A DNA stretch of 64,000 nucleotides from a virus. The notes beneath the pieces are model-generated. The model made no database searches, was not told the origin of the DNA, and saw only the letters and a list, made by a program, of their open reading frames with translations. The DNA lies in IMG/VR virus record IMGVR_UViG_3300046318_000491, positions 1-64,000 of that record. The stretch is one strand, 5' to 3'. The position numbers and the translations under genes are program-made. This document shows, in pieces, positions 7,472-64,000 of this stretch (its first letter is position 1; each line of letters opens with the position of its first letter).

Positions 7472-7516
7472 TGCTTCCTCTCTTTCTTTTATCCATACCT
7501 GCGTTTATTAGTTTAG

Positions 7517-7597: not shown

Positions 7598-7603
7598 TTA
7601 GTG

Positions 7604-8316: not shown

Positions 8317-8317
8317 T

Positions 8318-8413: not shown

Positions 8414-8451
8414 ACTGTACTACTTTCATATAGGTGTCAACTGTAGTTCCG

Positions 8452-8525
8452 TCGAGGCTGTGGGACTTGAACCCACGACGACCGAATTATGAGTTCGGGG
8501 CTCTAACCAGCTGAGCTAAGCCTCG
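8452..8525 (-). tRNA. tRNA with CAT anticodon (Ile2/lysidine type or elongator Met; not initiator)
   Basis: CGAGGCT/AGCCTCG acceptor stem fully paired, CCGAA-CTCATAA-TTCGG anticodon arm, GGTTCAAGTCC T arm. Confidence 0.92.
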
Positions 8526-11240: not shown

Positions 11241-12004
11241 TATCTTGCGCTATCTTCTATCACTGCAGTAAGGCCGAAGTCAGCAGATTCAATAGGCTCT
11301 AGGCTTTCTAGTCTTGCTATGCCACCAGCAACAATAAGGATGTTAGTCTTTCGACCTTCTTCTAAGTCCTCGACATCTGCTAAGACTGCCACCCTGTCAA
11401 ATACTTCTTTAGAGTAGTCAAAGTGCTTGGATGCAAAAGCCCCCTGAGTAGCCAGTGCATCTACTGCATTAATAACCACAACGCCATCATCTGACAACAA
11501 GTCATATAGAGCTGAATAGAAGTTCAAGGCAGATTGCTTTGTTGGTGCTAGGTAGTCCATATACACATCACAAAGGATTAAGTCGAAGGCTAAGTAACGA
11601 TCCTTCATAATAGTTCCAATGTTGGCAGCATCCGCATAGATAAGTTCTATGTTCGTATCAGCAGCCAACGGGAAGTGCTCCTGTGTAAAAGTAATGACGT
11701 CTTCTTCTACTTCTACTACTACCTGCTTAGAGCCAGGTCGAGTGGCCTCAATGTACCTAGGGATGGATAAAGCCCCGCCGCCTAGGTGTAGTACAGAGAT
11801 AGGCTGACCAGCAGGGAAGAAGTGATCAGTAAGGTAAGCCACGCGCTTGGCATAGTCAAAGTTGAGCTTAGGTTCACCGTCAAGGTCAAGGTTAGAGTGA
11901 TAGAAGCCATCTATGACAAGCGTCCAGCCAGGGTACCTCTCATGACGAGCAAAGCTAATCACTGGCCCGCCATTACGCAAGTTACGAGAAGCTAGGGTTT
12001 CCAT
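11240..12004 (-). CDS. Spermidine-synthase-like SAM-dependent transferase
   Basis: VLHLGGGALSIPRY, VVEVE, ADA, FDLILCD, LSDDGVVVIN. Confidence 0.8.
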   Translation of the reverse strand: METLASRNLRNGGPVISFARHERYPGWTLVIDGFYHSNLDLDGEPKLNFDYAKRVAYLTDHFFPAGQPISVLHLGGGALSIPRYIEATRPGSKQVVVEVEEDVITFTQEHFPLAADTNIELIYADAANIGTIMKDRYLAFDLILCDVYMDYLAPTKQSALNFYSALYDLLSDDGVVVINAVDALATQGAFASKHFDYSKEVFDRVAVLADVEDLEEGRKTNILIVAGGIARLESLEPIESADFGLTAVIEDSAR

Positions 12005-12117
12005 TACTTCTTAGGCTCTTTCTTAATAACCTTTATGCCAGCACTGTCTTTCATGCGATCCGCGAACTCAGTGCTAACTTCTGCTTCTGACTTAGAGTCA
12101 TTTATACCTTTAGTCAT
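12004..12117 (-). CDS. 37-aa peptide directly downstream of the ADP-ribosyltransferase
   Basis: MTKGINDSKSEAEVSTEFADRMKDSAGIKVIKKEPKK; ATG overlaps the ART stop and TAA overlaps the next ATG. Confidence 0.55.
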   Translation of the reverse strand: MTKGINDSKSEAEVSTEFADRMKDSAGIKVIKKEPKK

Positions 12118-14183: not shown

Positions 14184-14879
14184 ATGCAGGTTATTGACCA
14201 TGGTCACTCTATAATCGAGTACCAAGACGTTATAGAAAACCCTTACGACCTTATCTCGGTAATAGAGAACCTAGACAACGATAGTGGCGTCTATCAAGTT
14301 CTACCGAGATTTCAGGAGTGGAGGGAAGGTCATGTTCAACCTGATGGCGTATGGCGAGCTATCAACATCAAAGGGCGAAACAAGATAGTCCAGTGGTCAG
14401 AAACTAATGACGCTCCCGAGCTTAAGGGAGTCCGCGAGCGCGTCTCTGCTGAAGTTATAGATCGCATTTGGCTACCACTCTGCCAATCCATCAAAGACTA
14501 CTCCGAGCGAGTAGGAGCTGAAGTTCCCGAGATAGTCACACGCAATCTTGATATACGTGTCTACGCTACAGGGGAGAGCCTAGGCCCTCACCAAGACACC
14601 AACCATGATGGTGACTTCACTCACTACAGTTTGGTTATCTACTACAACGACGATTATGAAGGCGGGGAACTTCGTTTTCCAGATCTAGGGATAGAGATAA
14701 AGCCTAGGGCAGGCACCATCGTGGCTTTCCCTGCAACCGCGCTCCACGAGGCATTAGCAACCACTAAGGGCGAGAAGTGGCACACTCCTTGTTTCTGGTA
14801 CGCAGATGCATCTATAGTTACAGCTGGCAAAGAGCCACCTAGTTTAGATCGATTTAAAAAGGTTCTAAAGAATCTGTAG
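14184..14879 (+). CDS. Prolyl-4-hydroxylase-like 2OG-Fe(II) oxygenase
   Basis: HQD...YYNDDYEGGELRFP...HEA...K. Confidence 0.9.
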   Translation: MQVIDHGHSIIEYQDVIENPYDLISVIENLDNDSGVYQVLPRFQEWREGHVQPDGVWRAINIKGRNKIVQWSETNDAPELKGVRERVSAEVIDRIWLPLCQSIKDYSERVGAEVPEIVTRNLDIRVYATGESLGPHQDTNHDGDFTHYSLVIYYNDDYEGGELRFPDLGIEIKPRAGTIVAFPATALHEALATTKGEKWHTPCFWYADASIVTAGKEPPSLDRFKKVLKNL

Positions 14880-15717: not shown

Positions 15718-16482
15718 TTAGTTATTGGTCTCAATTACACGAGTGTATGTCACAACGGTGTTGCCGTTGCCTTTTGCCCACTGGCTTATAGACACAATTG
15801 CTGTCTTTTCTCCTCGTTTTCCACCAGCGTGTATCATCTCATTTGGTCCCACGTATATACCAACGTGGTACGCGGATTTAGAGCCCTCGTATGTAAAGGC
15901 TACTATGTCTCCGATTTTTGGTTCCTTGACCAACTCTCCCGAGTTCTTCTGCAGGGAGGCACGGTGTTCTAGTGTATATCCAATCTTTCCATACATCCAA
16001 AGGACGAGACCTGAACAGTCCCAGCCATCTGGAGTGGATCCACTGAATGCGTACCAGGTCCTACCGACCTGCTTCTTTACTAGTGCTACCGCTTGATTCA
16101 GTTCTTTAGTATCTTTGGCGACACGCTCTAGTCGAGCAATCTCCGCTTCTAGCTTCTCCTGTGTAGAGAGAGCGTCTGACTGAATCTTATCTTTCTCTGC
16201 CTTCTCCCGAGCCATCCATTCCATCGAACCCATTACAGGCTCTCCGGTTTCGATGATTGGTCCAGCCTTTACGGCAGATACCTTCACGGGACCAGCCAAA
16301 GTAGCTTTCATCTTTACGATGCCACTAACCTTTGGCCCTTGAGCAGTTCTTACTTGTGTTACCTGTGTTACTTGTGTTGCTTGGTCCACCGTTGCACTTG
16401 CTTGGGCGGAGGTTCCAAACGGGGGTTTGGTACCTGTAATCATCACTAGTGCTAGTGCACTAATTGCAATGAGCTTTTTCAT
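15718..16482 (-). CDS. Secreted NlpC/P60 (C40) cell-wall peptidase
   Basis: Signal peptide, coiled coil, DCSGLV, YHVGIY and IHA catalytic motifs. Confidence 0.92.
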   Translation of the reverse strand: MKKLIAISALALVMITGTKPPFGTSAQASATVDQATQVTQVTQVRTAQGPKVSGIVKMKATLAGPVKVSAVKAGPIIETGEPVMGSMEWMAREKAEKDKIQSDALSTQEKLEAEIARLERVAKDTKELNQAVALVKKQVGRTWYAFSGSTPDGWDCSGLVLWMYGKIGYTLEHRASLQKNSGELVKEPKIGDIVAFTYEGSKSAYHVGIYVGPNEMIHAGGKRGEKTAIVSISQWAKGNGNTVVTYTRVIETNN

Positions 16483-18066: not shown

Positions 18067-18241
18067 GGTCCATATCCCTTATAGCCTGAACAATAAACCC
18101 GATATGCAGAGCATGCTCTGGGTTAGATCGCATTAGCTCTTTGGCTTGCTTTTCTAGGGCTGCAATAATATCTAGCCGCTCAAACTCGCGGCCGTTCTTT
18201 AGAAGGTCTAAATCTCTCTTAGTTAAAGTATTACTTGACAT
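18059..18241 (-). CDS. Hypothetical protein
   Basis: 60 aa; coupled to neighbours. Confidence 0.6.
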   Translation of the reverse strand: MSSNTLTKRDLDLLKNGREFERLDIIAALEKQAKELMRSNPEHALHIGFIVQAIRDMDHA

Positions 18242-19248
18242 CAGGCCTCCAAAAGGTTTTTAAAGTATGGCTTTGATTCTATGGCTTTAAGTATCTCCAG
18301 CGGATCCCTGTCATGAGGAATACAGATATGAGTATGCTTTTTTAGATATGTAACATAAGTATAGGAGTGTATTGATTTATCTGGAACACCACCAAAGTTT
18401 CTATATAAAGGGGTGAGAAGCTCTACTAAAAGCCCACCGTCATTCATAAAGAAACTATTGTAAAGCCCAGAACTTGTAGCTGAGGCTATAGTTTTAGCAC
18501 TTGCCATATATTTGATTTGATCTGAAAAACTTGGAAAATCTTCCGGGACTATGATTTCAAATCCAAGGTCTTTAAAGTACTGCTCAACGAGCTCTTCATT
18601 GTGGATTCTTTTATCATCTTTAAATACTATATGTTCAGGAAAAACTATACCCTCTGGTTCTATCCCGGGATCAGCATGCTTTCTTGTTAGGTATACTTTC
18701 TTCTCTGCAGCTGGTCTATCTTCCCCGACGACTAGGTCCAAAAGAAGATCCATAACTTCTTTTAATTCAACAGGGGAAGTTTTACTATTTCTACGTTGAA
18801 TATAGTAAAAATTATTTATTTCTAGATATGTTCTTAACTCATTAGGTAGATGATTGTTCTGCGTATCGACGCAAACTACCACATAGTTAATGTTATTTTT
18901 ATCTAGCAATTTAAAAAACAAAGAATAAATTGAACCCATATTCTTATTTTGAATATTTACGTAGGTGTCAAAATCTCCTTTACTAAAGACAAATAACACA
19001 TCTTTATTTATTTTATGTTCACGCCATATGTTAGTAATAGTATTTGCGAGAGCATGAAAGAAGTTATCTTGTAAGGTAATTAAAAATTTCTTTTCTGGAC
19101 CAACTATGGAAACCTTAGTCCCGTAAAACTTTGATTCATCAGAATTAATAAAAAACTCATCCCCGCTACTGGCTACATACCTGAATTTATTATCCATAAA
19201 TTCCACGTATTGCTGAGAAACAAAAGGTGCCAGGTCAGATGTAAGCAT
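18241..19248 (-). CDS. Glycosyltransferase, GT61 (DUF563)-like
   Basis: KVYLTR...RIHNE...GFEIIVPE...FSDQI...SSGLYNSFFM; AT-rich; TAGGAT 6 nt before the ATG. Confidence 0.8.
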   Translation of the reverse strand: MLTSDLAPFVSQQYVEFMDNKFRYVASSGDEFFINSDESKFYGTKVSIVGPEKKFLITLQDNFFHALANTITNIWREHKINKDVLFVFSKGDFDTYVNIQNKNMGSIYSLFFKLLDKNNINYVVVCVDTQNNHLPNELRTYLEINNFYYIQRRNSKTSPVELKEVMDLLLDLVVGEDRPAAEKKVYLTRKHADPGIEPEGIVFPEHIVFKDDKRIHNEELVEQYFKDLGFEIIVPEDFPSFSDQIKYMASAKTIASATSSGLYNSFFMNDGGLLVELLTPLYRNFGGVPDKSIHSYTYVTYLKKHTHICIPHDRDPLEILKAIESKPYFKNLLEA

Positions 19249-24892: not shown

Positions 24893-25519
24893 CTAGTCTA
24901 CCGGATTTTCATTAAGCCTTTTTTTAGAGAAAGCGGTACCTACATACCTGATTCCCGACGTAACAGTAGCTACTCCATGTAGATACTCTTCTGTACCAGG
25001 GTGCATAACTAAACTACCAGCCTCTGGTTTTATTGCTATTTCCAAGTTTGGATAGTATATTTGACCACCTTCATAGTCATCATTTAGATATAGAACCATC
25101 CCATGAGGCGTGTCGACTCCCACCTTGAGACCAGGTAGGGAGTCATAGTGAGGTAGCATATCCCCTAATGTCTTCATAACATTTATCACGCTAGCTTTTA
25201 TAAAAAAATCTGCTCTATCTGATCCGTATAAATCAGCGTAAAGATTTTCTAATTTTGTATTGATATTTTCTATAGCTGTTCTCACCGATGGGCTATCGTA
25301 TTTACCTAGAAATACATAAGGCTTTTCTCCAGGGTTTACTTGATTATCATTAGTGTAGCCAACTAAATCTTCATTATCATAGTGATTTGCCAAAGAATCT
25401 ACTACTGCTGATATCAATGTTGCAGTCTGATCCTTAGATAAAAAATTTTTTACATAGACAATCTCTGTAGCAGATATGTCGTTAGAAAATTTAGATATGT
25501 CTATAGTATTAGGATGCAT
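24893..25519 (-). CDS. Prolyl-4-hydroxylase-like 2OG-Fe(II) oxygenase
   Basis: HYD...YLNDDYEGGQIYYP...HGV...RY; start 25519 or 25540. Confidence 0.9.
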   Translation of the reverse strand: MHPNTIDISKFSNDISATEIVYVKNFLSKDQTATLISAVVDSLANHYDNEDLVGYTNDNQVNPGEKPYVFLGKYDSPSVRTAIENINTKLENLYADLYGSDRADFFIKASVINVMKTLGDMLPHYDSLPGLKVGVDTPHGMVLYLNDDYEGGQIYYPNLEIAIKPEAGSLVMHPGTEEYLHGVATVTSGIRYVGTAFSKKRLNENPVD

Positions 25520-26117
25520 TAGCCATAAAGTATCTGCCATAGTCGGTATAAGGAATTACTGTAGAGTCGATCCACCAGTCCTCGTGGGGGTGGCGCTGGA
25601 CTAGTTGATAGCCATAGCTAGAGAGAATTGCTCTCTGAGCATCACGATCAGCGGTATTTTTATAATTATTTAGACTATCATGTTCGAATTGAATAACTGT
25701 AAATCTATATGTACTAAGCGGTAGATTAACTAGACCTTTTAAGCACAGAGAGCCAGGGCCAATTTCTCTACCTAAGTCGTCATAGCCAGCATCCATATCT
25801 ACCTGAAGGTAGTCAATTTGCTTAGGAAAGTTATTTTCCTCAAAGTACTTGCGAAAATCAAAGGTAGTTGCATCGTGAAGAATGCACGGATTAGCTCGAT
25901 TAGCATTAAACTCCTCGGCAAACTCAGGTACGACATCAAAAGAAACTCCCGACCAGTGGAACCTATTCTCTAATAGCCAAGTATTGCTGCCTCTCTTAGA
26001 ATGAAAAGCACCAAGCTCTACGTACGTGCCATAAGTTTTCTCATCTAGGACACTGATAACGAAAGACTCATTTCCTCCGCCGCCGCTATTGCTATCTGGG
26101 TACACCTGGTAATTCAT
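25509..26117 (-). CDS. FkbM-like SAM-dependent methyltransferase
   Basis: YVELGA...SNT..LE...W.G, IDYLQVD, IQFEH. Confidence 0.8.
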   Translation of the reverse strand: MNYQVYPDSNSGGGGNESFVISVLDEKTYGTYVELGAFHSKRGSNTWLLENRFHWSGVSFDVVPEFAEEFNANRANPCILHDATTFDFRKYFEENNFPKQIDYLQVDMDAGYDDLGREIGPGSLCLKGLVNLPLSTYRFTVIQFEHDSLNNYKNTADRDAQRAILSSYGYQLVQRHPHEDWWIDSTVIPYTDYGRYFMANAS

Positions 26118-28463: not shown

Positions 28464-28578
28464 TTATTAGCACTAGGGTCCTTCAACCGTCCGGAACAGG
28501 GTTCCTAGCACTTGCCCTACCGCACTTTGGGCCATTTACCTACCACGCCCATATGTCGTGTTTCGGAGTGCGGAATCG

Positions 28579-28893
28579 TGGAGATGCGGGGAATTGAACC
28601 CCGGTCCGATCAAAAACAAACTATTCTTCTACAAGCTTAGGCTTTACCAGCCACGGTACTACAGCTGCGGGATCTTAAGGTCTCCTGCTGCAACCCTTTA
28701 GTGGTTCTATTTATTTAAAACCTGACTGCCCAGCTAGAACTACTGCTTTGTCAGGGGCACGGGGCTACTATTAGGCAGCTAGTGCGAATGCTGAACGTGA
28801 GTTTGCATTTATTGCTTTGCCCGATTTAAGAGGTACAGGCTTCTCTGCGTGCTTCACTAGTTTGTCGAATGACCGTCGAAACCTGTCATCCCC
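28579..28893 (-). ncRNA. ssrA: tmRNA
   Basis: 5' GGGGATG / 3' CATCTCC-A acceptor with G3:U wobble, GGTTCAATTCC T arm; tag frame 28806-28771 reads ANSRSAFALAA followed by two stops. Confidence 0.96.
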
Positions 28894-32980: not shown

Positions 32981-33295
32981 TTATAGCATTTTAGCGATAT
33001 TGCGAGTGCGAAGGCGTCGCATCATACGCCGACGGTCCATTTGAGTCATGCCTCCCCAGATACCCTGTAAATCAAGGCGCTCTAGCGCAAAGCCAGCGCA
33101 TTCCAGCTTATAAGGGCATTCAGCACAGATTGCTTTAGCCTCTCGCTCATTGGAGTAATACTCGAACTTAGCGATTATGGCATCAGAATGATCGACAGGG
33201 AAAAATATATCCGGGTCTGTTTGACTGCATAAAGGGTCACCATTGTCTGTAAAGTTAGGGAAACCCTCTAAGTATCCAATGCTATCAAAATCCAT
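32981..33295 (-). CDS. whiB: WhiB-family Fe-S transcription factor
   Basis: CSQTDPDIFFP...CAECPYKLEC...GIWGG...RR. Confidence 0.93.
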   Translation of the reverse strand: MDFDSIGYLEGFPNFTDNGDPLCSQTDPDIFFPVDHSDAIIAKFEYYSNEREAKAICAECPYKLECAGFALERLDLQGIWGGMTQMDRRRMMRRLRTRNIAKML

Positions 33296-51266: not shown

Positions 51267-52628
51267 ATGAGCAAAAGAACTGGTAGACACTCCGCGCAGC
51301 AAAACGACTTTTTGCAGCCTAGTGCCGTAACTATAACTAACGCATATAACGTTGGCACTAACCGCCCGTATCTATTGACTGCCACTGGCACTAATGGTCA
51401 GGGTGGCGCTGTTGCACTAGTATGGACTCTACCGGGAGACTCACCTGCTGCTCTTAGCTATGACATAACATCTAGCCCAGCTACAGTCACAAAAAATACC
51501 ACTAGCCTACCAACAGGTGGATCTCCTTTTATTTTTGAAGGTCTAGCATCTGGTGTTTCATATACCTTTACTGTAATTGCAAAGAATAATGCTGGCAGCT
51601 CTCTGCCGACAACATCAGGATCAGTGGCTGTATCAACAGTTCCCGCAGCTCCAAGTGCCCCTACAGTACGAAGTGTCACAAACGAGCAGATTGACTATGT
51701 AACCATCACAGCTCCTTCAGCTAATGGTGGTTCTAATATTCTTGCAACCGCAGGCTATTCCTGGGAGAGCAATGATGGTAAATCAGGCAACCGTGACGCA
51801 ACTGGAGAATTTGCTGTTGGTCAGGAAGCAAATACATCTCAGCAATATCGAGTTAAAGCTAATAACTCCAACGGATCATCAGATTGGTCTGCCTATTCTG
51901 GTGCCGTAACCACCCCCCCTTACTTTCCTCCATACTTTCCACCTTACTTCCCTCCGTTCTTCCCTTACTTCCCTCCATACTTCCCACCTTACTTCCCACC
52001 GTTCTTCCCTTACTTCCCTCCGTTCTTCCCTTACTTCCCACCGTTCTTCCCGTTCTTCCCGTTCTTCCCACCGTTCTTCCCTTACTTCCCTCCGTTCTTC
52101 CCTTACTTCCCACCGTTCTTCCCGTTCTTCCCACCTCGCTTCGGATGTATTGAAGCAGAGACTTTGATCGAGACAGCCAACGGTCCTGTAGCGGCTAAGG
52201 ACTTGAAGGTAGGAGACACTATCCTCTCAATGTCACTAGAAGAGCTAGGCGCTGAGCAGATGACTCCTATCGAGTTCACTATCGGAGATAGCTTGACTTT
52301 CGGAGCTGAAGGCTTGGTTGACACTACAATCACCGCGATTGTAGAAAGTGTAAAGACTGGAATTGTCTACTTCAACGGCAAGAAGGAGTCTCGCTACTCT
52401 AGCCAGCAGCCAGTGTTTATTAAGTCAAACGGCGAATTCCACGTTCGTATGGCTGGAAACCTAGTAATTGGCGACACTCTAGTTCAGGTAAATGCCGATG
52501 GCACATACCAGGAAGAGATGATTACCGAGACAACCGTGCTACACGGCGAGTTCACCGTCTACCAGTTCACATGTTCCCCGCACCACTGGTTCATTGCTGG
52601 TGGGTATCTAGTCCACAACAAGCTCTAA
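51267..52628 (+). CDS. FN3-FN3 / Pro-Tyr-Phe repeat / Hint-domain protein
   Basis: YTFTVIAKNNAG and YRVKANNSNG FN3 ends; 74-aa P/Y/F tract; G|CIEAETLI...DLKVGD...VYQF...FIAGGYLVHN Hint motifs. Confidence 0.85.
   Translation: MSKRTGRHSAQQNDFLQPSAVTITNAYNVGTNRPYLLTATGTNGQGGAVALVWTLPGDSPAALSYDITSSPATVTKNTTSLPTGGSPFIFEGLASGVSYTFTVIAKNNAGSSLPTTSGSVAVSTVPAAPSAPTVRSVTNEQIDYVTITAPSANGGSNILATAGYSWESNDGKSGNRDATGEFAVGQEANTSQQYRVKANNSNGSSDWSAYSGAVTTPPYFPPYFPPYFPPFFPYFPPYFPPYFPPFFPYFPPFFPYFPPFFPFFPFFPPFFPYFPPFFPYFPPFFPFFPPRFGCIEAETLIETANGPVAAKDLKVGDTILSMSLEELGAEQMTPIEFTIGDSLTFGAEGLVDTTITAIVESVKTGIVYFNGKKESRYSSQQPVFIKSNGEFHVRMAGNLVIGDTLVQVNADGTYQEEMITETTVLHGEFTVYQFTCSPHHWFIAGGYLVHNKL
51915..52136 (+). repeat. 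Tandem PPYF/PPFF/PYF/PFF coding repeat (20 units plus PP)
   Basis: 12 tetramer and 8 trimer units; 34 Pro, 30 Phe, 10 Tyr. Confidence 0.97.
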
Positions 52629-52637
52629 AAATAAAAG

Positions 52638-52667
52638 AATAAGGCCCTACGGGGCCTTATTTTTTTT
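52638..52667 (+). terminator. Intrinsic terminator
   Basis: AATAAGGCCC-TACG-GGGCCTTATT followed by a T run. Confidence 0.85.
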
Positions 52668-52729
52668 GCCAAATTATACTATTAGTGCTAGACTCATTTA
52701 AGCCAGAGTAAAACCGACATGGGAGAATA

Positions 52730-53482
52730 ATGGATTCCAACCAAGGACAAAATGATTGGTTCACTAAAGACCGATCAGAAACAGCTAGTAATAGATCAGC
52801 TGATCGCCAGCTAGGGCCAATAAAGGTAGCAAATCCAGCCCTCGGCATCAATGTGTATAGCGGAGCCATAACTAAAGAGCAGGGTCAAGCATACATCCAA
52901 ATCTTAGAGTCTAAGCTGAACGGTCAAACCAGATACGAATGGCAGGGCGCACGAGTTACTTCATCTGATGAAGTCGCTCTATACGCCCGTAATGCCTTGG
53001 ACTTTAAAGTTAGTTCTAACAATCTAGGACTTAAAGACGCTGATAACGCGGAGCTTTATGACATTCACGAGCGAATATTTCAAGCGATTCGCCGCTGTGT
53101 AGACGACTACGGACGCATCTGGGGAGTCGGCATTGCGTCCTACGAGTCCTTCAACTTTGTAAAATATGACGGTCCTGGAACCCACTTCAAGATCCATGCT
53201 GACCACGGGCCTACTTACGTATGCACTATCTCAGTTTGCGTATATCTAAATGACGACTACGAAGGCGGGGAAATCCATTTCCCTAGGTTTGATGGCCTAA
53301 CTATTAAGCCAAAGGCCGGAGATATTGTAGTATTCCCCTCGACCTATATCTATGAACATGCATCTTTAGATATGGTTAGTGGCATTAAGTATGCAGTAGT
53401 AGTCATGACTGACTACAATGATCGTGATGGCGTGAACCATCGAGTATCGCCTACAATTCAAGCATACGAGCTTAAGTACTAA
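52730..53482 (+). CDS. Prolyl-4-hydroxylase-like 2OG-Fe(II) oxygenase (array 1/10)
   Basis: HAD...YLNDDYEGGE...HAS...KY. Confidence 0.9.
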   Translation: MDSNQGQNDWFTKDRSETASNRSADRQLGPIKVANPALGINVYSGAITKEQGQAYIQILESKLNGQTRYEWQGARVTSSDEVALYARNALDFKVSSNNLGLKDADNAELYDIHERIFQAIRRCVDDYGRIWGVGIASYESFNFVKYDGPGTHFKIHADHGPTYVCTISVCVYLNDDYEGGEIHFPRFDGLTIKPKAGDIVVFPSTYIYEHASLDMVSGIKYAVVVMTDYNDRDGVNHRVSPTIQAYELKY

Positions 53483-53483
53483 A

Positions 53484-54056
53484 TTGAGCAATAACATTAA
53501 GGTCTACGAGAATTTTGTTTCTGCGCAGGAAATAGATTTTCTACTGAGCTTTTTTATTGACTACAGTGATAACTTCGAGCTGATAAATAACTCAGTGAAT
53601 CTACTTGGATTTGGTCAAGACAATTTCCCAGCCTCCTCCCTGTTCAATAATCCTAATAGTTTTTCGGACATTCTTCCTCAGGAAAAAATTAAGTTTATAC
53701 AGGACTACTACAAACGTGTAGAAACTACAGTGGGCTCCGATATTGCTAAAGACATAAGCATGTCAGCACTATGGTTTGTGAAAACTATGGAAGGCGGGTT
53801 TCCGGAGCACGGCGATAATGAACCAGACGCCATCTATCAGTACGAGCAGACATGTATTTTATATCTAAACGACTGCGAGAATGGTGGAGAAATAGTGCTC
53901 CCGGAGTTCGACTACAGCTTTTTACCAAAAGCGGGATCCTTACTATCATTCCCAGCAAATTACGTACATGCAGTTCTACCCGTGTCTCACCCGAGGTATA
54001 CGATGCCTAGCTGGCTTACCGAGAATAAGGCATATTCTTTAGACAATTACGTATAA
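53484..54056 (+). CDS. Prolyl-4-hydroxylase-like 2OG-Fe(II) oxygenase (array 2/10)
   Basis: HGD...YLNDCENGGE...HAV...RY. Confidence 0.87.
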   Translation: MSNNIKVYENFVSAQEIDFLLSFFIDYSDNFELINNSVNLLGFGQDNFPASSLFNNPNSFSDILPQEKIKFIQDYYKRVETTVGSDIAKDISMSALWFVKTMEGGFPEHGDNEPDAIYQYEQTCILYLNDCENGGEIVLPEFDYSFLPKAGSLLSFPANYVHAVLPVSHPRYTMPSWLTENKAYSLDNYV

Positions 54057-54151
54057 ATACCAGGTATTTAGTGAATAATTTTTAGTTTTAGTGTAGAGTT
54101 AAGCCATAAATAGGTTTAACCTATAGCTGACCATAGCGATAGAAGGAACAT

Positions 54152-54901
54152 ATGGAACCGGAACACATTAGCGGGCCTGATGAAGAAATGCAAAAGCAGA
54201 TGGACGATCACAATGTCCGCCTTAAGGCTTGGTACACCATAGATGAGCAAACTTGGAGTTCTGCCGAAGAGGTATCCCCTGGAACCGGCATATGGGTTTA
54301 TCATGATGTTCTACCAAAGAGCCTAAATATCATTGACCGTTTAGAGAATGTTTTGAATGATGAAACTAACTCATACAACTACGCTGATGCAATGGTGGGA
54401 TACGGCATTAAGATGCCGGAATATCGAGACTGCTTCGATTTTAAATACAAGAAAAGCGATATTGCAGAGGATCAAAGTGAAGCAGGGCTAGCCCTTCACT
54501 CTTTAGCCGACGACACTTACTCCCGCCAGGTGCAAGCTGTAAAGCACTACACAAAGCACTACAATATCGGCGAACTACGCTACTGGGAAGCAACTAACTA
54601 CATTAAGTACGGCCCGGGTCAGCATTTCCAGGAACACCATGACCACGGGTTCTCTTACAACTGCGTAGTCTCTATTGTAGCTTTCCCTAATGATGATTAC
54701 GAAGGCGGGGAATTATACTTCCGACTACATAATGTAACCATTAAGCCAAAGGCTGGTGACATCTACGTATTCCCTTCAAACTTTATGTATCCACACCGGG
54801 CTATGCCTGTCAAGTCTGGTACAAAGTATTCAATGGTTACAATGCTCGACTACTCGGATAAGTATCACAAGCCGGGATTCTATGAAGAAACTGGAAGTTA
54901 A
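54152..54901 (+). CDS. Prolyl-4-hydroxylase-like 2OG-Fe(II) oxygenase (array 3/10)
   Basis: HHD...NDDYEGGE...HRA...KY. Confidence 0.9.
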   Translation: MEPEHISGPDEEMQKQMDDHNVRLKAWYTIDEQTWSSAEEVSPGTGIWVYHDVLPKSLNIIDRLENVLNDETNSYNYADAMVGYGIKMPEYRDCFDFKYKKSDIAEDQSEAGLALHSLADDTYSRQVQAVKHYTKHYNIGELRYWEATNYIKYGPGQHFQEHHDHGFSYNCVVSIVAFPNDDYEGGELYFRLHNVTIKPKAGDIYVFPSNFMYPHRAMPVKSGTKYSMVTMLDYSDKYHKPGFYEETGS

Positions 54902-55656
54902 TGAGTTCGATTAAGGTCTACAAAGGCTACCCAAACACTGCCACAGTAGCGCCGCTACCGGCAGCCCGCGACTGGATGGATAAGTCTCATGACAAGCACG
55001 CCTACATGTGCTTCCCAATGGCACTAACCAACCGTCTTGGCTGGGGCATTTCATTCCCTGAAGATATTGTTTTTATCTGGGATGGCATTGATGATACGAC
55101 TCCAGACCACGTTAAGGTTTTAAAGGGTCAAGAGTGGGCAAACTCAAAGCGCGGTAACGCCACGCTTAGCTTCGAGACAGGTCTTATTTTTAAGACAGAC
55201 CCAGACGTGACGTTGTTAACTATGCCCGTCCCAAACCAGTTCATTGCTGGTACACAGTGTTTTACCACTCTGATCAGTACGTCGTTCTATATGCCACCGC
55301 TTCCAATTGCCTGGAAGCTGACAGAGGCTAACAAAGAAATTACAATCCCCGCTGGTACGCCTGTTGCAGCACTGCTCCCTATTTCACTAGGCCACCTAGA
55401 GAATGATTACGTTATGGAGCTTAACAAGGAGATCTTAGACAACTCGTACTGGCAGGAGTTGCAGAAATACGGTGATGCAGCTCAGGCTAAAAATGCAATA
55501 GGCGACTGGTCCAAGATGTACCGAGACGCCGTTGACTACAAAGGAGATAAAGTGGGAGCCCACGAAACTAAATCAATCAAGCTTAAGACTGTGACATGCC
55601 CGTTCACCGGTCAAACCTATGAAGTAGAGGATGACTCGGTTGAGCCTAACGAATAA
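54901..55656 (+). CDS. DUF6065-like protein
   Basis: P....RDWMD.....HAY.C.PM...N..GW; PVPN; no HxD...H oxygenase motif. Confidence 0.65.
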   Translation: MSSIKVYKGYPNTATVAPLPAARDWMDKSHDKHAYMCFPMALTNRLGWGISFPEDIVFIWDGIDDTTPDHVKVLKGQEWANSKRGNATLSFETGLIFKTDPDVTLLTMPVPNQFIAGTQCFTTLISTSFYMPPLPIAWKLTEANKEITIPAGTPVAALLPISLGHLENDYVMELNKEILDNSYWQELQKYGDAAQAKNAIGDWSKMYRDAVDYKGDKVGAHETKSIKLKTVTCPFTGQTYEVEDDSVEPNE

Positions 55657-56380
55657 GATTAAGTTTGTCATGAATAGGCCTTGGCTGACAAAAGACAGTC
55701 CGTCAGCACCAGGGCCAACCATTAAAACTATTCCTGACTGGTATCGCAAGGCGGATAGATTTGCTATTAATCCCCACACTAACGAGCCCTGGATCAATCC
55801 TCAGGATGGCGGAAAGGTCCCTACTTGGAAGGCTTGTCCAGCAGTCTTTGACATCATGGGAACCGGATACGTCTACAAGACCCCGTGCGATGTAGAAGTT
55901 TACGAAGAAAATGGCGAGATCAAGATCAAGATAGAAGATCAGTACAACAAGGATTTTGTTGGAGATCGCATGCCTATGCCTCAGTTTGTTCCGCCTCAGG
56001 GGTACCACGAAAAGCACTTTGCATGGTGGTCTGACTGGGCAGTAGTACTGCCAGAAGGGTATAGTGCTCTGTATACTCAACCATTTAATAGGTTTGAGCT
56101 GCCATTTCTAACAACCAGCGGTATTATTGACAATGATAAGGTCCACCTTCCTGGAACTATGCCCTTTTTTATTGTCAAGGGATTTACAGGGGTAATCCCG
56201 GCAGGAACTCCTTATGCTCAGATTCTCCCTTTTAAGCGTGAAGACTGGACATCAGAACTACAGACAAACATCAGCTACGAGCAGATGATGAAGAACAACA
56301 TGGAAAACAGTAATAAATATCGAGTACCTAATGGTGGCGTCTACCAGAAGGAAGTATGGACTCGCCGAGTCTACGAGTAA
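55631..56380 (+). CDS. DUF6065-related protein
   Basis: PDWY...TWKACP...D....GY...P.GYS.L...P.N...PF...GIID.D...IPAGTP.AQI.PFKRE.W; shares IPAGTP with the upstream gene. Confidence 0.6.
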   Translation: MTRLSLTNKIKFVMNRPWLTKDSPSAPGPTIKTIPDWYRKADRFAINPHTNEPWINPQDGGKVPTWKACPAVFDIMGTGYVYKTPCDVEVYEENGEIKIKIEDQYNKDFVGDRMPMPQFVPPQGYHEKHFAWWSDWAVVLPEGYSALYTQPFNRFELPFLTTSGIIDNDKVHLPGTMPFFIVKGFTGVIPAGTPYAQILPFKREDWTSELQTNISYEQMMKNNMENSNKYRVPNGGVYQKEVWTRRVYE

Positions 56381-56394
56381 GGTAGGATAGCAAT

Positions 56395-57069
56395 ATGACC
56401 GAACAAGAATTAGCTAACAGCCACCGCGGAGCACCTCGCGTCTCTATCACCCCTTCGGGGTATTATGGTGATTCACCGGACAATATTGTCACACTAGAAA
56501 ACTTCATGACTGAAGAAGAGATCGTGGCTCTAGATACTTTTATCCGTAGTAACACGGAGTGGGACGTCACTGAAACTCACTATAACGAAGAGGGTACAGT
56601 AATTTATGACTCGGATTACTGGAAGGATCGAGTAGCAACTTACACGACTATCGATCGGGTAGACCCAGAAATCCCTGCAATTATTGAGGGTATGGTCGAG
56701 CGACTAAAGGTAGAAGTAGATAAATTTTTTAAGGTAGATGCTATGCCTACCAGTCCAGCATTGGTCCGCTGGCTTCCGGGAATGCTGCAGCAGCCTCACG
56801 CTGATAAAGAGCTGCACCAAGGAAACGATAGAGGCAAGCCAAATGACTTTCCATACTATGACCTAGCAGGCCTTTTTTATATCAATGATGACTATGAGGG
56901 GGGCGAGTTGTATTTCCCTAATCAAGGGATTCAGTTTAAGCCTAAGCGCGGAGCTGCCTACTTCTTTCCTGGAGATTTAAATTATATTCATGGTGTAACC
57001 GAGATTACCTCTGGAACTAGATATACTTGCCCATTTTTCTGGACAATTGTAAAGCATGTCGACGCTTGA
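56395..57069 (+). CDS. Prolyl-4-hydroxylase-like 2OG-Fe(II) oxygenase (array 4/10)
   Basis: HAD...YINDDYEGGE...HGV...RY; TAGGAT 6 nt before the ATG. Confidence 0.9.
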   Translation: MTEQELANSHRGAPRVSITPSGYYGDSPDNIVTLENFMTEEEIVALDTFIRSNTEWDVTETHYNEEGTVIYDSDYWKDRVATYTTIDRVDPEIPAIIEGMVERLKVEVDKFFKVDAMPTSPALVRWLPGMLQQPHADKELHQGNDRGKPNDFPYYDLAGLFYINDDYEGGELYFPNQGIQFKPKRGAAYFFPGDLNYIHGVTEITSGTRYTCPFFWTIVKHVDA

Positions 57070-57688
57070 ACCATATGAGATAGCCCCCCTGGTTTTTGTA
57101 TATCCAGGGGTCTATAAAGACGCGCCCACTCTAGTAGATGCACTAGAAAATGGACCAAAAGGGATCAACTACTCGATTTACGACTGGGAGCCATGGGAAG
57201 GTAGAGGCAAGCATGCCACTATAAACCCAGGGCTGCAAGTCAAACTAGAAGAAGACGACAATGTTTTTGATGCGGTCAGATCTTTCGTTTCGGCGTATGA
57301 TGAAATTTTTGCTGATTATATTTCTAGAAAAAACATACAATTAAGCGGTCCAGTGATGTCTAATATTGCATGCAATTATTATGAAGAGGGAGCATCCATG
57401 GGGTTTCATACCGATTCCGATCCTGAAGACGAGCAAGCTCCTTACTACTCCATTACAGTAAATTGCTACCTAAATGATGACTACGAGGGCGGAGACTTAG
57501 TCTTTAACCTCTCTACTGAAGAAAACGCAGAGACTGTTAGATACACACCAAAAGCTGGCGACTTTGTTGTCATCCCCGCCTCACCGCCATATTTACACAA
57601 ATCTGAAAAAATTATCTCTGGTAAAAAGTATTTTTCGCACCGAGTAGTGACTGAAGATAAAAAGCCAATATGGCAGTTAGGAGTCTAG
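57056..57688 (+). CDS. Prolyl-4-hydroxylase-like 2OG-Fe(II) oxygenase (array 5/10)
   Basis: HTD...YLNDDYEGGD...HKS...KY. Confidence 0.9.
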   Translation: MSTLEPYEIAPLVFVYPGVYKDAPTLVDALENGPKGINYSIYDWEPWEGRGKHATINPGLQVKLEEDDNVFDAVRSFVSAYDEIFADYISRKNIQLSGPVMSNIACNYYEEGASMGFHTDSDPEDEQAPYYSITVNCYLNDDYEGGDLVFNLSTEENAETVRYTPKAGDFVVIPASPPYLHKSEKIISGKKYFSHRVVTEDKKPIWQLGV

Positions 57689-58453
57689 GTGGATATCAAG
57701 GTTTTATATCCAAAGATCCATATCTACAGTGGACTTCTTGGTGACTCTCAGGAGTTAATAGCCACCCTACGCGACGTATACGATTGGAGCGGTTGGTATA
57801 CTTTTGGAGATCTAGCAGTAGTGCAGATAGATCGTCGAAATTTTGATACGTTTCCCTCGCGTGAAGACTGGGACCTGGTAGAGCAATCTATTGAAAAGCC
57901 AAACGCAGCTGCCTCTTCTATTATCAATGCTTTCTACAGTGCCACTAGCCACTATGTAGATGTCAACAACGTTAGCCCAGTTAGCTGGAACTTTAACTCT
58001 CCAGCTGTCTGCATGTATAACACTAATGCCGGGGCGTCTGAAGACGTTGCTATGCACTACCACACTGACTTCCAGCAAGAAAAAAGAGATGAACCAGGGT
58101 TTAAGCCTTACATCACCTGCACTATGTACCTAAATGACGATTATGAAGGTGGAGAGATCGAGTTTAAAGTACTACAGTCAGATGGCTCATTCGATCGCGT
58201 CTCATATAAGCCAAAAGCAGGGGATATTTTAGTTTTCCCTTCCGATGAACCGTACTACCACGGAGTAAATCTAACCACCAAGGGTAAAAAGTACTTTGTA
58301 CGGTCTTTCTGGGACTACTACTTCCCGGGAACTGAAGAGTGGCACGAGGGTTTAAAAACCTACGGAGAAGAGACTTGGCTTAAAATGGAACAGGATCGCG
58401 AAAAAGCCGAAAGAACTACTGGACGCTACAACCTAATGAATAGGGGTAACTAA
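57689..58453 (+). CDS. Prolyl-4-hydroxylase-like 2OG-Fe(II) oxygenase (array 6/10)
   Basis: HTD...YLNDDYEGGE...HGV...KY. Confidence 0.9.
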   Translation: MDIKVLYPKIHIYSGLLGDSQELIATLRDVYDWSGWYTFGDLAVVQIDRRNFDTFPSREDWDLVEQSIEKPNAAASSIINAFYSATSHYVDVNNVSPVSWNFNSPAVCMYNTNAGASEDVAMHYHTDFQQEKRDEPGFKPYITCTMYLNDDYEGGEIEFKVLQSDGSFDRVSYKPKAGDILVFPSDEPYYHGVNLTTKGKKYFVRSFWDYYFPGTEEWHEGLKTYGEETWLKMEQDREKAERTTGRYNLMNRGN

Positions 58454-59178
58454 TGTTTGATTCAATAGACGCCTCTACCTTTATTTACTACAAAGATGAA
58501 GAGAATACTCTTTCTAAACTAGGCGTTACTAAGAACAGAATTGTTGAAGTCCCTAACTTCATAGACGCTGATACTGCTAAAAAGTTAGTTGACTACTTTG
58601 ATAATGGCCCGGAGACCTGGGATTTTATAGCCTTCTACCATTCATACGGGATGGGCCTTAACCCCGACCCTAAGGAATTAGCTGTATTTGATCTCGATCC
58701 AAACGTATTTGACAAAATAAACGCCGGAACTAAGACTTTAGTCGAGCTCATATTCGAGCAGAGGGTTAAAGCAAATACGGCTCATGCTCAGAAATGGGTA
58801 GAAGGCGGTTTTGCAAATCCGCACTCGGACAATTCAGATGAAGATGGTAACCCCACCGCGTTTGAGATAAACAAATACGTAGCTATTTTGTACTTAAATG
58901 ATAGCTATGAAGGCGGAGAACTCTACTTCCCTGAGCACGGTCTAGAGATCAGACCAAATAAGTACTCTTTATATGTTTTACCTGGGGGGATAGAGAATAT
59001 ACATGGAGTGCGCGAGATACTTTCTGGGGAAAGGCATACCATGCTCTCTTTCTGGGACTTTGCAGACGCTGAATACTCAGAGGAGCGCAAGGCTGAATGG
59101 GCTGCCGAGCTCAAAGAAGTCAGAGCCTCACAGGCGGAGCAGCGTATAGAATGGAAGAATGGAAATAAATATGTTTAA
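58453..59178 (+). CDS. Prolyl-4-hydroxylase-like 2OG-Fe(II) oxygenase (array 7/10)
   Basis: HSD...YLNDSYEGGE...HGV...RH. Confidence 0.9.
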   Translation: MFDSIDASTFIYYKDEENTLSKLGVTKNRIVEVPNFIDADTAKKLVDYFDNGPETWDFIAFYHSYGMGLNPDPKELAVFDLDPNVFDKINAGTKTLVELIFEQRVKANTAHAQKWVEGGFANPHSDNSDEDGNPTAFEINKYVAILYLNDSYEGGELYFPEHGLEIRPNKYSLYVLPGGIENIHGVREILSGERHTMLSFWDFADAEYSEERKAEWAAELKEVRASQAEQRIEWKNGNKYV

Positions 59179-59986
59179 TTCAGAAGAACTACTGACAGAT
59201 CTGCCCACTCCAACGGAGATCTATCCGCGCATATTTGTGTACAAAGCAGCATTTAAAAACCCGCTAGAGTTTATTGAAAAAGTAAAGCAACTGCCTACAT
59301 GGCAGTCTTGGTGGACTTTCGGAGATATGGCTAGCGTCCCCGGAATCGAATATACCAAGTTTGACACTAAGCCTACCTACGAAGAGTGGGAGGCATTTAT
59401 TGCTGGATACGTGGAAGATACAAAAGGCAAGCCGGGCTGGGACTTATCTCCTTATGTAGATAAGTTATTCTACAAGGCTACAGAAGATCACATGAAGAAG
59501 TATCCTCTAGAGATACCCAACTGGTCCCACCAAAAGCCATCTATTGCAAAATACGTAGCCCTAGGCGGGGTAGATGATGACAAATACTCCATGCACTACC
59601 ACACTGACTTCCAGCGAGAAAAGGCTGATGCCCCAGGGCTTAAGTATGCCCTAACCTGTACTATGTATTTAAATGATGACTACGAGGGCGGGGAGCTTAC
59701 GTTTAAGATAGCAAACGGCTCGGGCGGTTTCGACACTATTGACTACAAGCCAGGGGCTGGCGACGTAGTGGTTTTTCCTTCGGTAGAGCCGTACTTCCAT
59801 GGAGTGAAGCAGATTACCTCGGGAGATCGATACTTTATTAGGACTTTTTGGACCAGTGAATTTGCTGGCACCCCTGAGTGGCTTGCAAATCAAGAAAAGT
59901 ATGGTAAAGAAGTTTGGGCTCAGATGGAGAAAGAGCGCGAGAGCGCCTTCAGACGCGGCGAGTCCACAGACATATACAATGATTAG
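59159..59986 (+). CDS. Prolyl-4-hydroxylase-like 2OG-Fe(II) oxygenase (array 8/10)
   Basis: HTD...YLNDDYEGGE...HGV...RY; start may be 59171. Confidence 0.9.
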   Translation: MEINMFNSEELLTDLPTPTEIYPRIFVYKAAFKNPLEFIEKVKQLPTWQSWWTFGDMASVPGIEYTKFDTKPTYEEWEAFIAGYVEDTKGKPGWDLSPYVDKLFYKATEDHMKKYPLEIPNWSHQKPSIAKYVALGGVDDDKYSMHYHTDFQREKADAPGLKYALTCTMYLNDDYEGGELTFKIANGSGGFDTIDYKPGAGDVVVFPSVEPYFHGVKQITSGDRYFIRTFWTSEFAGTPEWLANQEKYGKEVWAQMEKERESAFRRGESTDIYND

Positions 59987-60026
59987 CGAGTATACTTATA
60001 TTCTAACTATTAAGAATGGGTTATAA

Positions 60027-60710
60027 ATGTTTCCAGAACCAGTATGGCTTAAGGATGACGTTGTCACGTTCCCAGGATTTTTAGATCCTGAAGAGTGCCA
60101 GAAAATTATCGACTTCTTTGAAGATCAAGGTAAAGAGTATTGGATGCAGACATGCTTCTATGACTCCCTTGGTATGGCTCTCGTCTCGGACGTTGATGCG
60201 CTAGAACGCTCGGGCCTAGAGGACATCCATAAAGACTACTTCCGCTGGCTACCAGAGCACATTCGTGCTGCAGTGGAGTTGGCATACGACCGAGGAATTA
60301 AGCTAAACAGTGCTCATGCTCAGAAGTGGCCTAAGGGCGCTTTCGCTCGCTGGCACTCAGACAGCTCGGACATTGACGGCAACCCAACCGCGTGGCGCGA
60401 CAACAAGTTTGCTAGTGTTCTTTACCTAAATGACAACTATGAAGGCGGAGAGCTAGAGTTCCGTGACCACAACCTAAGCGTAAAGCTTCCTCAGGGTAGT
60501 TTGATTGCTTTTCCAGGTGGAGTAGAGAATATCCACCGCATCAACGAAATTATGGATGGCACAAGATTCACCATCGTAGGTTTCTGGGACTACATCGACT
60601 CTGTCTATACAGAAGAAGAATTGGCTCAACGCGAGGCCGAAATCGCTTATGAGCGAACTCGCCAGGATGAGCAAAAGCGCCAGTGGGCTGCCGGTAATAA
60701 AAACGCCTAA
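60027..60710 (+). CDS. Prolyl-4-hydroxylase-like 2OG-Fe(II) oxygenase (array 9/10)
   Basis: HSD...YLNDNYEGGE...HRI...RF. Confidence 0.9.
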   Translation: MFPEPVWLKDDVVTFPGFLDPEECQKIIDFFEDQGKEYWMQTCFYDSLGMALVSDVDALERSGLEDIHKDYFRWLPEHIRAAVELAYDRGIKLNSAHAQKWPKGAFARWHSDSSDIDGNPTAWRDNKFASVLYLNDNYEGGELEFRDHNLSVKLPQGSLIAFPGGVENIHRINEIMDGTRFTIVGFWDYIDSVYTEEELAQREAEIAYERTRQDEQKRQWAAGNKNA

Positions 60711-60726
60711 TTAGCTTGGGAGAGCC

Positions 60727-61416
60727 ATGATTGATGAATCAAGAGTAACAATTTACGCTGATCGCATCTTCTATTTCGAGGGGATTTTAGACAACCCGGA
60801 GTATGCGATTAATATGCATCAAGTCATGGATGAGATGCTTAACTCAGATACGGGTGAAGTTTTTCACAAGCTGGTGCCTTGGCAGACCTCTGACGCAGTT
60901 CCTCACGTCTATGGGACAAAGCGTATGACCACACGCGAAAACTTAGAATCTACATCAAATCAAGAAGTTAAAGATTTTTATATAAAAGTAGATTCAATAT
61001 TTGACGAAGCGGGCAGATATTATTTTGAAAAGCTAGGGCTAGACTACCAAAACGGTAAGTTAATGACTGACTATGCAATGTTTCATTACAACACCGGCCA
61101 AGAGATGGGACCTCATGTTGATGACAACTACGAGCCTCTAGTTGATCCAATTTGTACTGGTCTAATTTACCTAAATGACGATAAAGACGGTGGAGACCTT
61201 TGGTTTCCAGAGCAAGACGTTCTAATAAAGGCAGTGCCTGGGAGCATGGTAATTTTTCCATGCGTTAAGCCTTTCTTCCATGCATCTACTAAGTTAAAGC
61301 AAGGTATCAAATACCACATTGGAACTGGATGGAAGCGTCATCGAACCCCCGCGGAGATAGAAGCATTAGGGCCAGACTATGGAGCCGATGCTCACCGTGG
61401 TATGGCAATGGAGTAA
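60727..61416 (+). CDS. Prolyl-4-hydroxylase-like 2OG-Fe(II) oxygenase (array 10/10)
   Basis: HVD...YLNDDKDGGD...HAS...KY. Confidence 0.9.
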   Translation: MIDESRVTIYADRIFYFEGILDNPEYAINMHQVMDEMLNSDTGEVFHKLVPWQTSDAVPHVYGTKRMTTRENLESTSNQEVKDFYIKVDSIFDEAGRYYFEKLGLDYQNGKLMTDYAMFHYNTGQEMGPHVDDNYEPLVDPICTGLIYLNDDKDGGDLWFPEQDVLIKAVPGSMVIFPCVKPFFHASTKLKQGIKYHIGTGWKRHRTPAEIEALGPDYGADAHRGMAME

Positions 61417-61504: not shown

Positions 61505-61869
61505 GTGTATTGCGCAACCACAAACGTTTATGACATTATTGTCGACCAAGGTGCTACCTTGTTACGCTCTATTGGCCTAAAAAGCTCGGCTAAACAGGTA
61601 GTCACGCTTACTGGGTATACCGGGGTCATGGAAGTTCGCTCCCAAAAAACAGAATCTACTGAAGTAGTCTTAACGTTGACTACATCAAACGGCGGCCTCG
61701 AGATCAATCCCTCTGCCGGAACCGTTCTTATTATTGCATCTCCTGCTCAGACTGCAGGGCTTACTCCAGGTAAATATGTCTACGATTTAGAGATGACAGA
61801 GACCTCGACGGGGATAGTTACTAAAGTAATTCAGGGCAATCTAACAGTTAGACCAGAGGTCACTAAATA

Positions 61870-61870
<1 letters not shown>
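61505..61870 (+). CDS. Virion structural adaptor protein (paralog of 39493..39855)
   Basis: DQGAT...GYTG.M.VR...LTTSNG...YVYDLEM...G...V.PEVT. Confidence 0.65.

Positions 61871-64000
<2,130 letters not shown>

Follow-up and report, generated by a model that had tools for sequence, protein, structure and literature searches.

We analysed a 64,000-nucleotide stretch (hereafter the window) of IMG/VR record IMGVR_UViG_3300046318_000491, taken from the start of a phage genome (labelled G000) that is complete at 153,711 bp and bears direct terminal repeats, and focused on a module formed by a fibre-region gene that encodes a long proline/tyrosine/phenylalanine tract (51267..52628) and by the array of oxygenase genes that follows it (52730-61416). 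We consider this module to be a real, conserved and transferable cassette with which the phage would hydroxylate its own fibre proteins, the tract being the likely substrate of the oxygenases, and we give this reading a probability of about 0.58. It draws on gene content, catalytic motifs, synteny, covariation and the phage lineages that carry the module, all of which were observed directly; the comparison covered about 150 related phage fragments in all.

Architecture of the tract protein and the oxygenase array

Tract protein 1 (P0001, 453 aa; 51267..52628, plus strand) comprises a conserved N-terminal peptide, two FN3 domains, the tract, an RFG|Cys junction and a bacterial intein-like (BIL)/Hint domain that ends in VHNKL. 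One FN3 domain passed the Pfam threshold (29 bits, cut-off 25), while the second was recognised from the family profile, whose positions 38-194 align with the tandem-FN3 titin structure 3lpw. The tract itself spans 74 residues (217-290; 51915..52136, plus strand) built from PPYF, PPFF, PYF and PFF units, and its DNA is an imperfect tandem repeat with a period of 12/21. It is followed by RFG and then by Cys294 and a C-terminal domain of 160 residues. An earlier reading of the same DNA (the original prediction) had described this order of FN3 pair, 74-residue tract, RFG|Cys and Hint domain, and every element of it was recovered. P0001 is one of a large protein family of uncultured phages, nearly all members of which have an aromatic/proline low-complexity tract behind an FN3 pair. 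In nearly all loci, the gene is part of the fibre operon and is preceded by an Mtd_N fibre gene.

The array holds twelve genes in one orientation, spaced by -20 to +95 nt, most of which overlap or abut. As the original prediction had proposed, ten of the twelve carry an intact HxD..H..R/K signature of 2-oxoglutarate (2OG)/Fe(II) oxygenases; the other two encode DUF6065-type proteins. The full catalytic signature was also kept in 361 out of 368 homologues from related loci.

Adjacency and covariation of tract and array in related phages

Two samples of loci were compared. The first included 80 viral contigs found with the alignment of the tract-protein family, and oxygenases were located downstream and co-oriented in 76 of them; the exceptions were three contigs with 0-2 kb of downstream sequence (L010, L035 and L080) and one with 10 kb free of oxygenases (L036). 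The second included 80 loci (L201-L280) drawn solely by a DNA pattern for PFFPPFFPFFP, 55 of which had at least 3 kb of downstream sequence. At least two oxygenases were found directly downstream in 49 of these 55 loci, DUF6065-type genes were likewise present in 49 out of 55, and oxygenase density reached 0.68 per kb downstream compared to 0.010 per kb upstream, a bias of approximately 65-fold. The search for repeat proteins that the original prediction had suggested, as a way to see whether arrays adjoin them more often than by chance, was thus answered in its favour by loci chosen on the repeat pattern only. A search of protein representatives with an alignment as query was dominated by giant multi-FN3 proteins and was uninformative on prevalence.

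The tracts were divided into a Pro-Pro class (PPxF/PFF, PPGFF and PPHF types) and a low-proline FG class (FGFTPFG and VFGFSPF types). Pro-Pro tracts were accompanied by 3-8 oxygenases within 10 kb (median 6) and FG tracts by 0-2. The first oxygenase was found within 150 bp in 41 out of 49 Pro-Pro loci and at least 3.5 kb away with FG tracts, and whole-contig counts of PF13640 were 7-17 and 1-3, respectively; the same whole-contig counts gave no PF13640 gene in those relatives of G000 that are devoid of a tract gene. One oxygenase clade (g6/g13, the type encoded at 57689 and 59159) was present in 13 out of 15 loci with Tyr-rich tracts and in 1 out of 22 with Tyr-poor tracts. Array size and composition thus follow how rich the tract is in proline, and possibly how rich it is in tyrosine. 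We also observed that the His-bearing variant (PPHF repeats; L028, L075 and L077) comes with extra, unusually long oxygenase open reading frames (ORFs) of ~1.3 kb that we did not see beside the remaining tract types.

In the FN3-domain tree, FG types were placed at four or more separate positions beside Pro-Pro sisters, and the array had collapsed each time. The capsid protein was used as an unlinked marker to compare phage backbones: among genomes with capsid proteins 95-100% identical, tract type and oxygenase count differed together (8-11 oxygenases in G035, G031 and G030; 1-2 in G037 and G027). The module was found in three capsid lineages. One is that of G000; the capsid of the second is 60% identical to that of Streptomyces phage Mildred21 and has no detectable similarity to the G000 capsid; the third is only 40-42% identical to the second. 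Because of this distribution, we regard the module as a unit that passes between phages with hosts that are probably the same. Its GC content matches that of the remaining window.

The oxygenases and their relationships

Nine of the ten array oxygenases passed the profile of PF13640 (2OG-FeII_Oxy_3) with 29-51 bits (cut-off 27). The tenth (g8, 53484..54056), a divergent protein with the motif intact, had no Pfam match and was recovered by a profile of the other nine (E 5.6e-15). All lie on the plus strand. The array opens with g2 (52730..53482), which accompanies PPxF and PPHF tracts and is absent with PPGFF tracts, and after g8 continues with g1 (54152..54901), found in nearly all loci of the Pro-Pro type. 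Behind the two DUF6065-type genes comes g0 (56395..57069), the most widely conserved oxygenase, which occurs with both Pro-Pro and FGFTP tracts, followed by a protein that formed a singleton orthogroup in our sample (57056..57688), by g13 (57689..58453), g4 (58453..59178) and the g6 gene associated with Tyr-rich tracts (59159..59986), and finally by g3 (60027..60710) and g15 (60727..61416), both with the PF13640 domain.

These paralogs are 21-45% identical to each other. The closest pairs, 57689/59159 (42%) and 58453/60027 (44%), suggest an old duplication of a two-gene unit. Other phages encode separate orthologues of each paralog and keep them in the same order; the array appears to consist of old, individually maintained genes. 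Recent tandem duplication was considered as the origin of the array and rejected, given the 21-45% identity and the orthologues of each paralog across loci.

The best match of the paralog profile was the Bacillus anthracis prolyl 4-hydroxylase (P4H), with E 1.2e-14 over ~180 residues (positions 23-200 of 216). PKHD hydroxylases, P3H1, an algal P4H, the lysyl hydroxylase LH3, the P4H entry 5c5t (E 1.3e-6), which we take to be the enzyme of chlorovirus PBCV-1, and PHD2 followed. By profile similarity, the array enzymes are closest to peptidyl-prolyl and lysyl hydroxylases.

The DUF6065 proteins

Of the two DUF6065-like genes that the original prediction had placed in the array, one encodes a DUF6065 protein and the other a remote relative. 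P0122 (54901..55656, plus strand) matched PF19541 with 107.7 bits (cut-off 26.6). P0123 (55670..56380, plus strand; the ORF opens at 55631, and the true start is probably 55670) had no Pfam match and was related to DUF6065 by hhalign (70%, E 3.9e-5) and by its Atlas assignment (0.98), DUF6065 being present in 12-23% of the members of its Atlas neighbours. The AlphaFold2 model of P0122 (pLDDT 83) resembled dUTPases, with VIA-align Z scores of 10.2-10.3 and a Foldseek E value of 5e-5, at 9-17% identity; we do not classify the protein as a dUTPase. On this model, P0122 has a dUTPase-like beta-barrel and the DUF6065 proteins are predicted not to be oxygenases; the possibility that they were cupins or double-stranded beta-helix oxygenases was discarded on account of that fold. 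The P0122 type was found in all 49 Pro-Pro loci and in none of 23 FG loci, and the P0123 type was also kept beside many FG-type tract genes.

Flanking elements and a second tract protein

Between the tract gene and the array we detected a hairpin resembling an intrinsic terminator on both strands (52638..52661; 10-bp stem with 5 GC pairs, flanked by an A-run and a T-run), so that the terminator foreseen at this place was confirmed. It is followed just upstream of the array by a promoter-like site on the plus strand, TTGCCA-17-TAGACT with a TG extension (52666..52694), which is a consensus match only.

Downstream of the array, a small conserved ORF of 121 aa without family assignment (61505..61870, plus strand) precedes the collagen-like gene, as it does in 21 related loci. 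Structural genes then resume at 61870, in agreement with the original prediction, with a collagen-like fibre of 1307 aa (61870..64000 and on to genome position 65793, plus strand; PF01391, E 5e-72). A second tract protein (P0124, 285 aa) is encoded 1.8 kb past the end of the window, at genome positions 65801-66658 (L081:5801-6658). It consists of an N-terminal domain, a 37-residue PPYF/PPFF tract placed as an internal linker, and a domain of the PASTA family (Pfam E 2.2e-5), which is a peptidoglycan-binding family in Gram-positive bacteria. Elsewhere, the gene that comes after the array encodes a protein with a PASTA-like-tract-Cys-Hint architecture, and the tract is thus portable between the proteins that flank the array. 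The fibre module also encodes a protein of 687 aa (genome positions 66728-68791; L081:6728-8788) in which we identified three carbohydrate-binding modules of the CBM_5_12 type together with a short segment of collagen-like sequence.

The Hint domain

The C-terminal domain of P0001 (52146..52628, plus strand) had weak Pfam scores (Hint_2, 17.2 bits with a cut-off of 28.4; Intein_splicing, 13.7 bits), while a profile of 28 relatives recovered 2lwy, a bacterial intein-like domain of known structure (E 7e-9), and mini-inteins (~3e-8). The first position, the putative nucleophile Cys294 in P0001, was Cys in 109 and Ser in 4 of 113 full-length relatives. Block B reads S-S-Q-Q in P0001 in place of Thr-x-x-His, with Gln in 77% and His in 22% of the Hint-bearing relatives, and the terminal His-Asn, which is followed by Lys-Leu in P0001 (VHN-KL), was kept in only ~47% of them. 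Like BIL and Hedgehog-type Hint domains (PDB 2lwy), P0001 has a predicted Hint fold at its C-terminus, with a putative Cys nucleophile at the N-terminal end of that domain, and lacks a Cys, Ser or Thr at position +1, and by analogy a thioester route that cleaves or transfers the upstream polypeptide would be expected. It differs from them in that the block-B His is replaced by Gln, the His-Asn pair is gone in about half of the relatives, and the whole domain is absent from most tract proteins.

Only 7 out of 69 complete tract ORFs of the pattern-based sample contained a Hint domain, and many relatives had a short acidic tail instead and kept the full array. The Hint domain is therefore an accessory and not an integral part of the module. 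In view of these counts and of the variable motifs, the release of a product by the Hint domain, which the original prediction had envisaged, would be at most a local elaboration. In tract proteins devoid of Hint (L004, L012, L064 and most of L201-L280), the end of the tract is marked by a conserved junction, PPRFG|(Y/I/M)S-IDP, and the highly acidic tail behind it may be a removable handle in place of the Hint domain.

Proposed mechanism

The substrates would be fibre-module proteins with a low-complexity (P)P-x-F tract repeated 10-25 times; in G000, these would be the FN3-FN3-tract-Hint protein in the window and the N-domain-tract-PASTA protein past its end. Diverged P4H-type 2OG/Fe(II) oxygenases with intact catalytic motifs, encoded between both substrates, would act on them, and the paralogs would differ in the sequence context in which they hydroxylate proline, and perhaps residues next to it, with the two DUF6065 proteins, predicted to be dUTPase-like in fold, as putative accessory factors. 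In G000, the Hint domain would probably cleave or transfer at Gly293|Cys294 and remove a C-terminal handle, while the short acidic tail would stand in for it in most relatives. The expected product is a stiffer, more soluble or protease-resistant spacer, possibly open to glycosylation, that would present FN3 or PASTA binding domains to the actinobacterial cell wall. We infer the enzyme-substrate relation, its chemistry, the virion location and the Hint cleavage from the genomic patterns described above.

The original prediction had compared the locus to the layout of ribosomally synthesized and post-translationally modified peptides (RiPPs). The comparison holds for the putative tailoring genes that adjoin a candidate substrate gene, and fails for the substrate: no short precursor with leader and core is present, and the candidate is a multidomain protein of 453 aa (~45 kDa). 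Because the tract is found in this fibre protein and as the internal linker of the 285-aa PASTA protein, we regard the substrates as structural proteins and not as RiPP peptides. A more specific version, in which the paralogs would constitute a hydroxylation code on the Pro/aromatic repeat, each placing a hydroxyl at its own residue or context, with g6/g13 for the Tyr units, DUF6065 proteins as adaptors, perhaps glycosyltransferases, and an adhesive spacer comparable to extensins or mussel foot protein, is a tentative proposal that we rate as less likely than not.

Alternative explanations and points against the cassette

If the tract gene were a mere neighbour, the oxygenases might be classical collagen-type prolyl/lysyl hydroxylases acting on phage G-X-Y fibres, as the 1307-aa collagen-like fibre that begins 450 bp past the array, the collagen-like ORFs downstream of many Pro-Pro arrays and the presence of collagen P4H, P3H1 and LH3 among the nearest solved relatives would suggest. 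However, collagen and oxygenases dissociate in both directions: the near-complete genomes G007, G008, G010 and G011 had 12-31 collagen matches and zero PF13640 genes, while the PPGFF-type genomes G030, G032, G033 and G035 had 10-14 oxygenases and 0-1 collagen matches. Moreover, the array always adjoins the tract gene, whereas the position of the collagen gene varies. Since collagen is abundant without oxygenases and nearly absent from these oxygenase-rich genomes, the oxygenases follow the tract and not collagen; the collagen fibres, which the original prediction had kept as alternative substrates, are disfavoured, and we find this explanation improbable. Another view, that the tract is cut loose by the Hint domain or a protease and is then secreted or injected, and that the oxygenases and DUF6065 proteins modify this peptide or the host envelope and no part of the virion, could appeal to the frequent role of bacterial Hint domains in processing secreted or polymorphic proteins and to the exact coincidence of the tract's end with the Hint Cys or with the conserved acidic-tail junction, as though a handle were being removed. 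It is hard to reconcile with the position of the gene inside the fibre operon, with FN3 domains, which are typical of virion decoration, and with the use of the tract as an internal linker before PASTA in the second protein, and we rate it as very improbable.

An auxiliary role deserves more weight, even if we still consider it unlikely. The oxygenases would then have host or metabolic targets, serving 2OG drawdown, modification of nucleic acids or of the ribosome or EF-Tu, or small-molecule chemistry, would accumulate in a hypervariable fibre region, and would be linked to the tract gene only by their position there. Multiple PF13640 copies without an assigned role have long been known in cyanomyoviruses (PMC3037559, PMC9146016), and a promoter-like site of its own precedes the array, behind the terminator. 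Linkage by position leaves unexplained why array size, the presence of DUF6065 and the Tyr-associated clade follow tract chemistry, why the bias towards the downstream side is 65-fold, and why the unit is intact across three capsid lineages.

Several points nevertheless weigh against the hydroxylation cassette that we prefer, and some of them favour the auxiliary role. The array is a conserved unit next to the tract gene, but it is not the only set of such enzymes in the genome: G000 encodes seven further PF13640 paralogs outside the array and the fibre module, among early and metabolic genes, and a cyanophage homologue similarly lies among RNR, CpeT and PDF genes, in a metabolic context. The terminator and the promoter-like site part the tract gene from the array. 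As tract gene and array are adjacent, one recombination event swaps both, and linkage alone could yield much of the covariation; the loci are also phylogenetically related and the counts given above are not independent events, for which reason the p-value computed for the covariation carries no weight in our reading. The sequences on which P4Hs are known to act are X-Pro-Gly, poly-Pro or of the PAPK type, and we know of no enzyme that acts on Pro-Pro-aromatic-Phe. Finally, the cassette as proposed does not account for as many as ten enzymes or for DUF6065.

Comparison with known systems and significance

The closest known viral case is chlorovirus PBCV-1, where a prolyl 4-hydroxylase is reported to act on the virus's own Pro-rich repeats, (-Pro-Ala-Pro-Lys-)n (PMC3634087). 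Both PBCV-1 and G000 encode a P4H-type enzyme of the same Pfam family (monomeric in PBCV-1) together with their own proline-rich repeats. They differ in that PBCV-1 is a eukaryotic virus with one enzyme, a Pro/Ala/Lys repeat, and substrate and enzyme genes that do not form a module, whereas the phages described here combine 5-10 diverged paralogs and two DUF6065 genes in one operon with a Pro/aromatic repeat and, in some members, a Hint domain. The P4H of B. anthracis (PDB 3itq, 5iax and 5hv0), the best profile match, is a prokaryotic cytoplasmic enzyme with repeat-rich surface fibres (BclA-type, collagen-like) as its assumed target; it differs in being a single gene with a collagen-like G-X-Y substrate, while collagen dissociates from the oxygenases in the phage lineage.

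Structural or adhesive Pro-Pro-aromatic repeats occur in plant extensins, in plant proline-rich proteins (Pro-Pro-x-Tyr units) and in mussel foot protein 1, where P4H-type enzymes hydroxylate them before glycosylation or cross-linking takes place. These systems would be analogous at most, since they are eukaryotic and based on the secretory pathway, and Phe, dominant in the phage tract, is not prominent in them; the glycosyltransferases beside the non-array paralogs of G000 may offer a parallel to the plant glycoproteins. Several diverged PF13640 copies per genome, with unassigned function, have also been reported in T4-like cyanophages (Sullivan et al. 2010, PMC3037559; S-SZBM1, PMC9146016), where they differ from the array in being scattered among metabolic and repair genes.

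Megablast of the region and tblastn of P0001 and of the DUF6065 protein gave zero matches among 50,697 cultured-phage records, so that no homologue of the tract protein or of DUF6065 was found there and, as far as these searches reach, the module is carried by no cultured model phage. In the literature we found no published description of the module or of DUF6065 and no paper on a phage that combines a prolyl 4-hydroxylase with a collagen-like tail fiber, and the papers on pelagimyophages and freshwater actinophages that we consulted made no mention of the module. We thus see it as a variant of the viral and bacterial theme of a P4H plus a repeat protein, for which we found no published description.

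Few unexplained genes are as common in aquatic phages as the multi-copy 2OG/Fe(II) oxygenases (PMC3037559), and for one large group of these the module points to a concrete candidate substrate that can be tested. If the cassette functions as proposed, phages would hydroxylate their own fibre proteins, which in viruses has been reported so far only for a chlorovirus (PMC3634087); one gene family could grow to ten context-specific protein hydroxylases, and DUF6065 would gain a biological context. The paralog-code version, if true, would represent a new class of virion post-translational chemistry and a first function for 'orphan' phage 2OG oxygenases. The module would also mark an adsorption device shared by unrelated phages on very abundant freshwater Actinobacteria, and the tract with its enzyme set could supply programmable peptide hydroxylases.

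Phage identity, non-array oxygenases and other features of the genome

The major capsid protein of G000 was nearest to that of Actinomycetia phage DSL-LC01 (68%), followed by Microbacterium, Arthrobacter, Gordonia and Mycobacterium phages, and its head genes are not T4-like. The genome also has two copies of whiB, a marker gene for phages with actinobacterial hosts, one in the window (33023-33235, minus strand) and one beyond it (genome positions 74791-74991, minus strand). On the basis of the capsid relationship and the two whiB genes, we assign G000 to the large phages of aquatic (lake) Actinobacteria; an origin from a T4-like cyanophage or a pelagiphage was rejected on the same evidence.

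Among the PF13640 paralogs outside the array, three lie on the minus strand (8590-9126, 9183-9812 and 10623-11240), interleaved with a DXD glycosyltransferase (Gly_transf_sug; 9880-10596, plus strand). The first of them (8590-9126) has a Tyr in place of the distal iron-binding His, falls below the Pfam cut-off and may be catalytically dead. Two others were recognised by profile match at 14184..14879 (plus strand) and 24893..25540 (minus strand). In addition to the DXD glycosyltransferase, a methyltransferase-fold protein (11240-12004, minus strand) and a GT61 glycosyltransferase (18241-19248, minus strand) are encoded beside or near these oxygenases, and such transferases could act on hydroxylated residues. 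The same region encodes a 481-aa protein (12110-13555, minus strand) that resembles Alt-like RNA-polymerase ADP-ribosyltransferase PHROGs in its C-terminal half (E 4e-17) and also contains a segment similar to the ParB C-terminus.

Elsewhere in the window we identified a tmRNA gene (28578-28893, minus strand) with the tag peptide ANSRSAFALAA beside a tRNA-Thr, and tRNA-Leu and tRNA-Met at 7516-8525. An M23 peptidase with a peptidoglycan-binding domain (5239-6042, plus strand) and an NlpC/P60 peptidase (15718-16482, minus strand) are probable cell-wall hydrolases. Finally, a 1621-aa ORF lies by the capsid gene at genome positions 109706-114574 (L083:9706-14571, minus strand), and its residues 790-1220 match portal and head maturation protease PHROGs; with a separate portal gene present at genome positions 122418-124151, this ORF may encode a large head-associated fusion protein.

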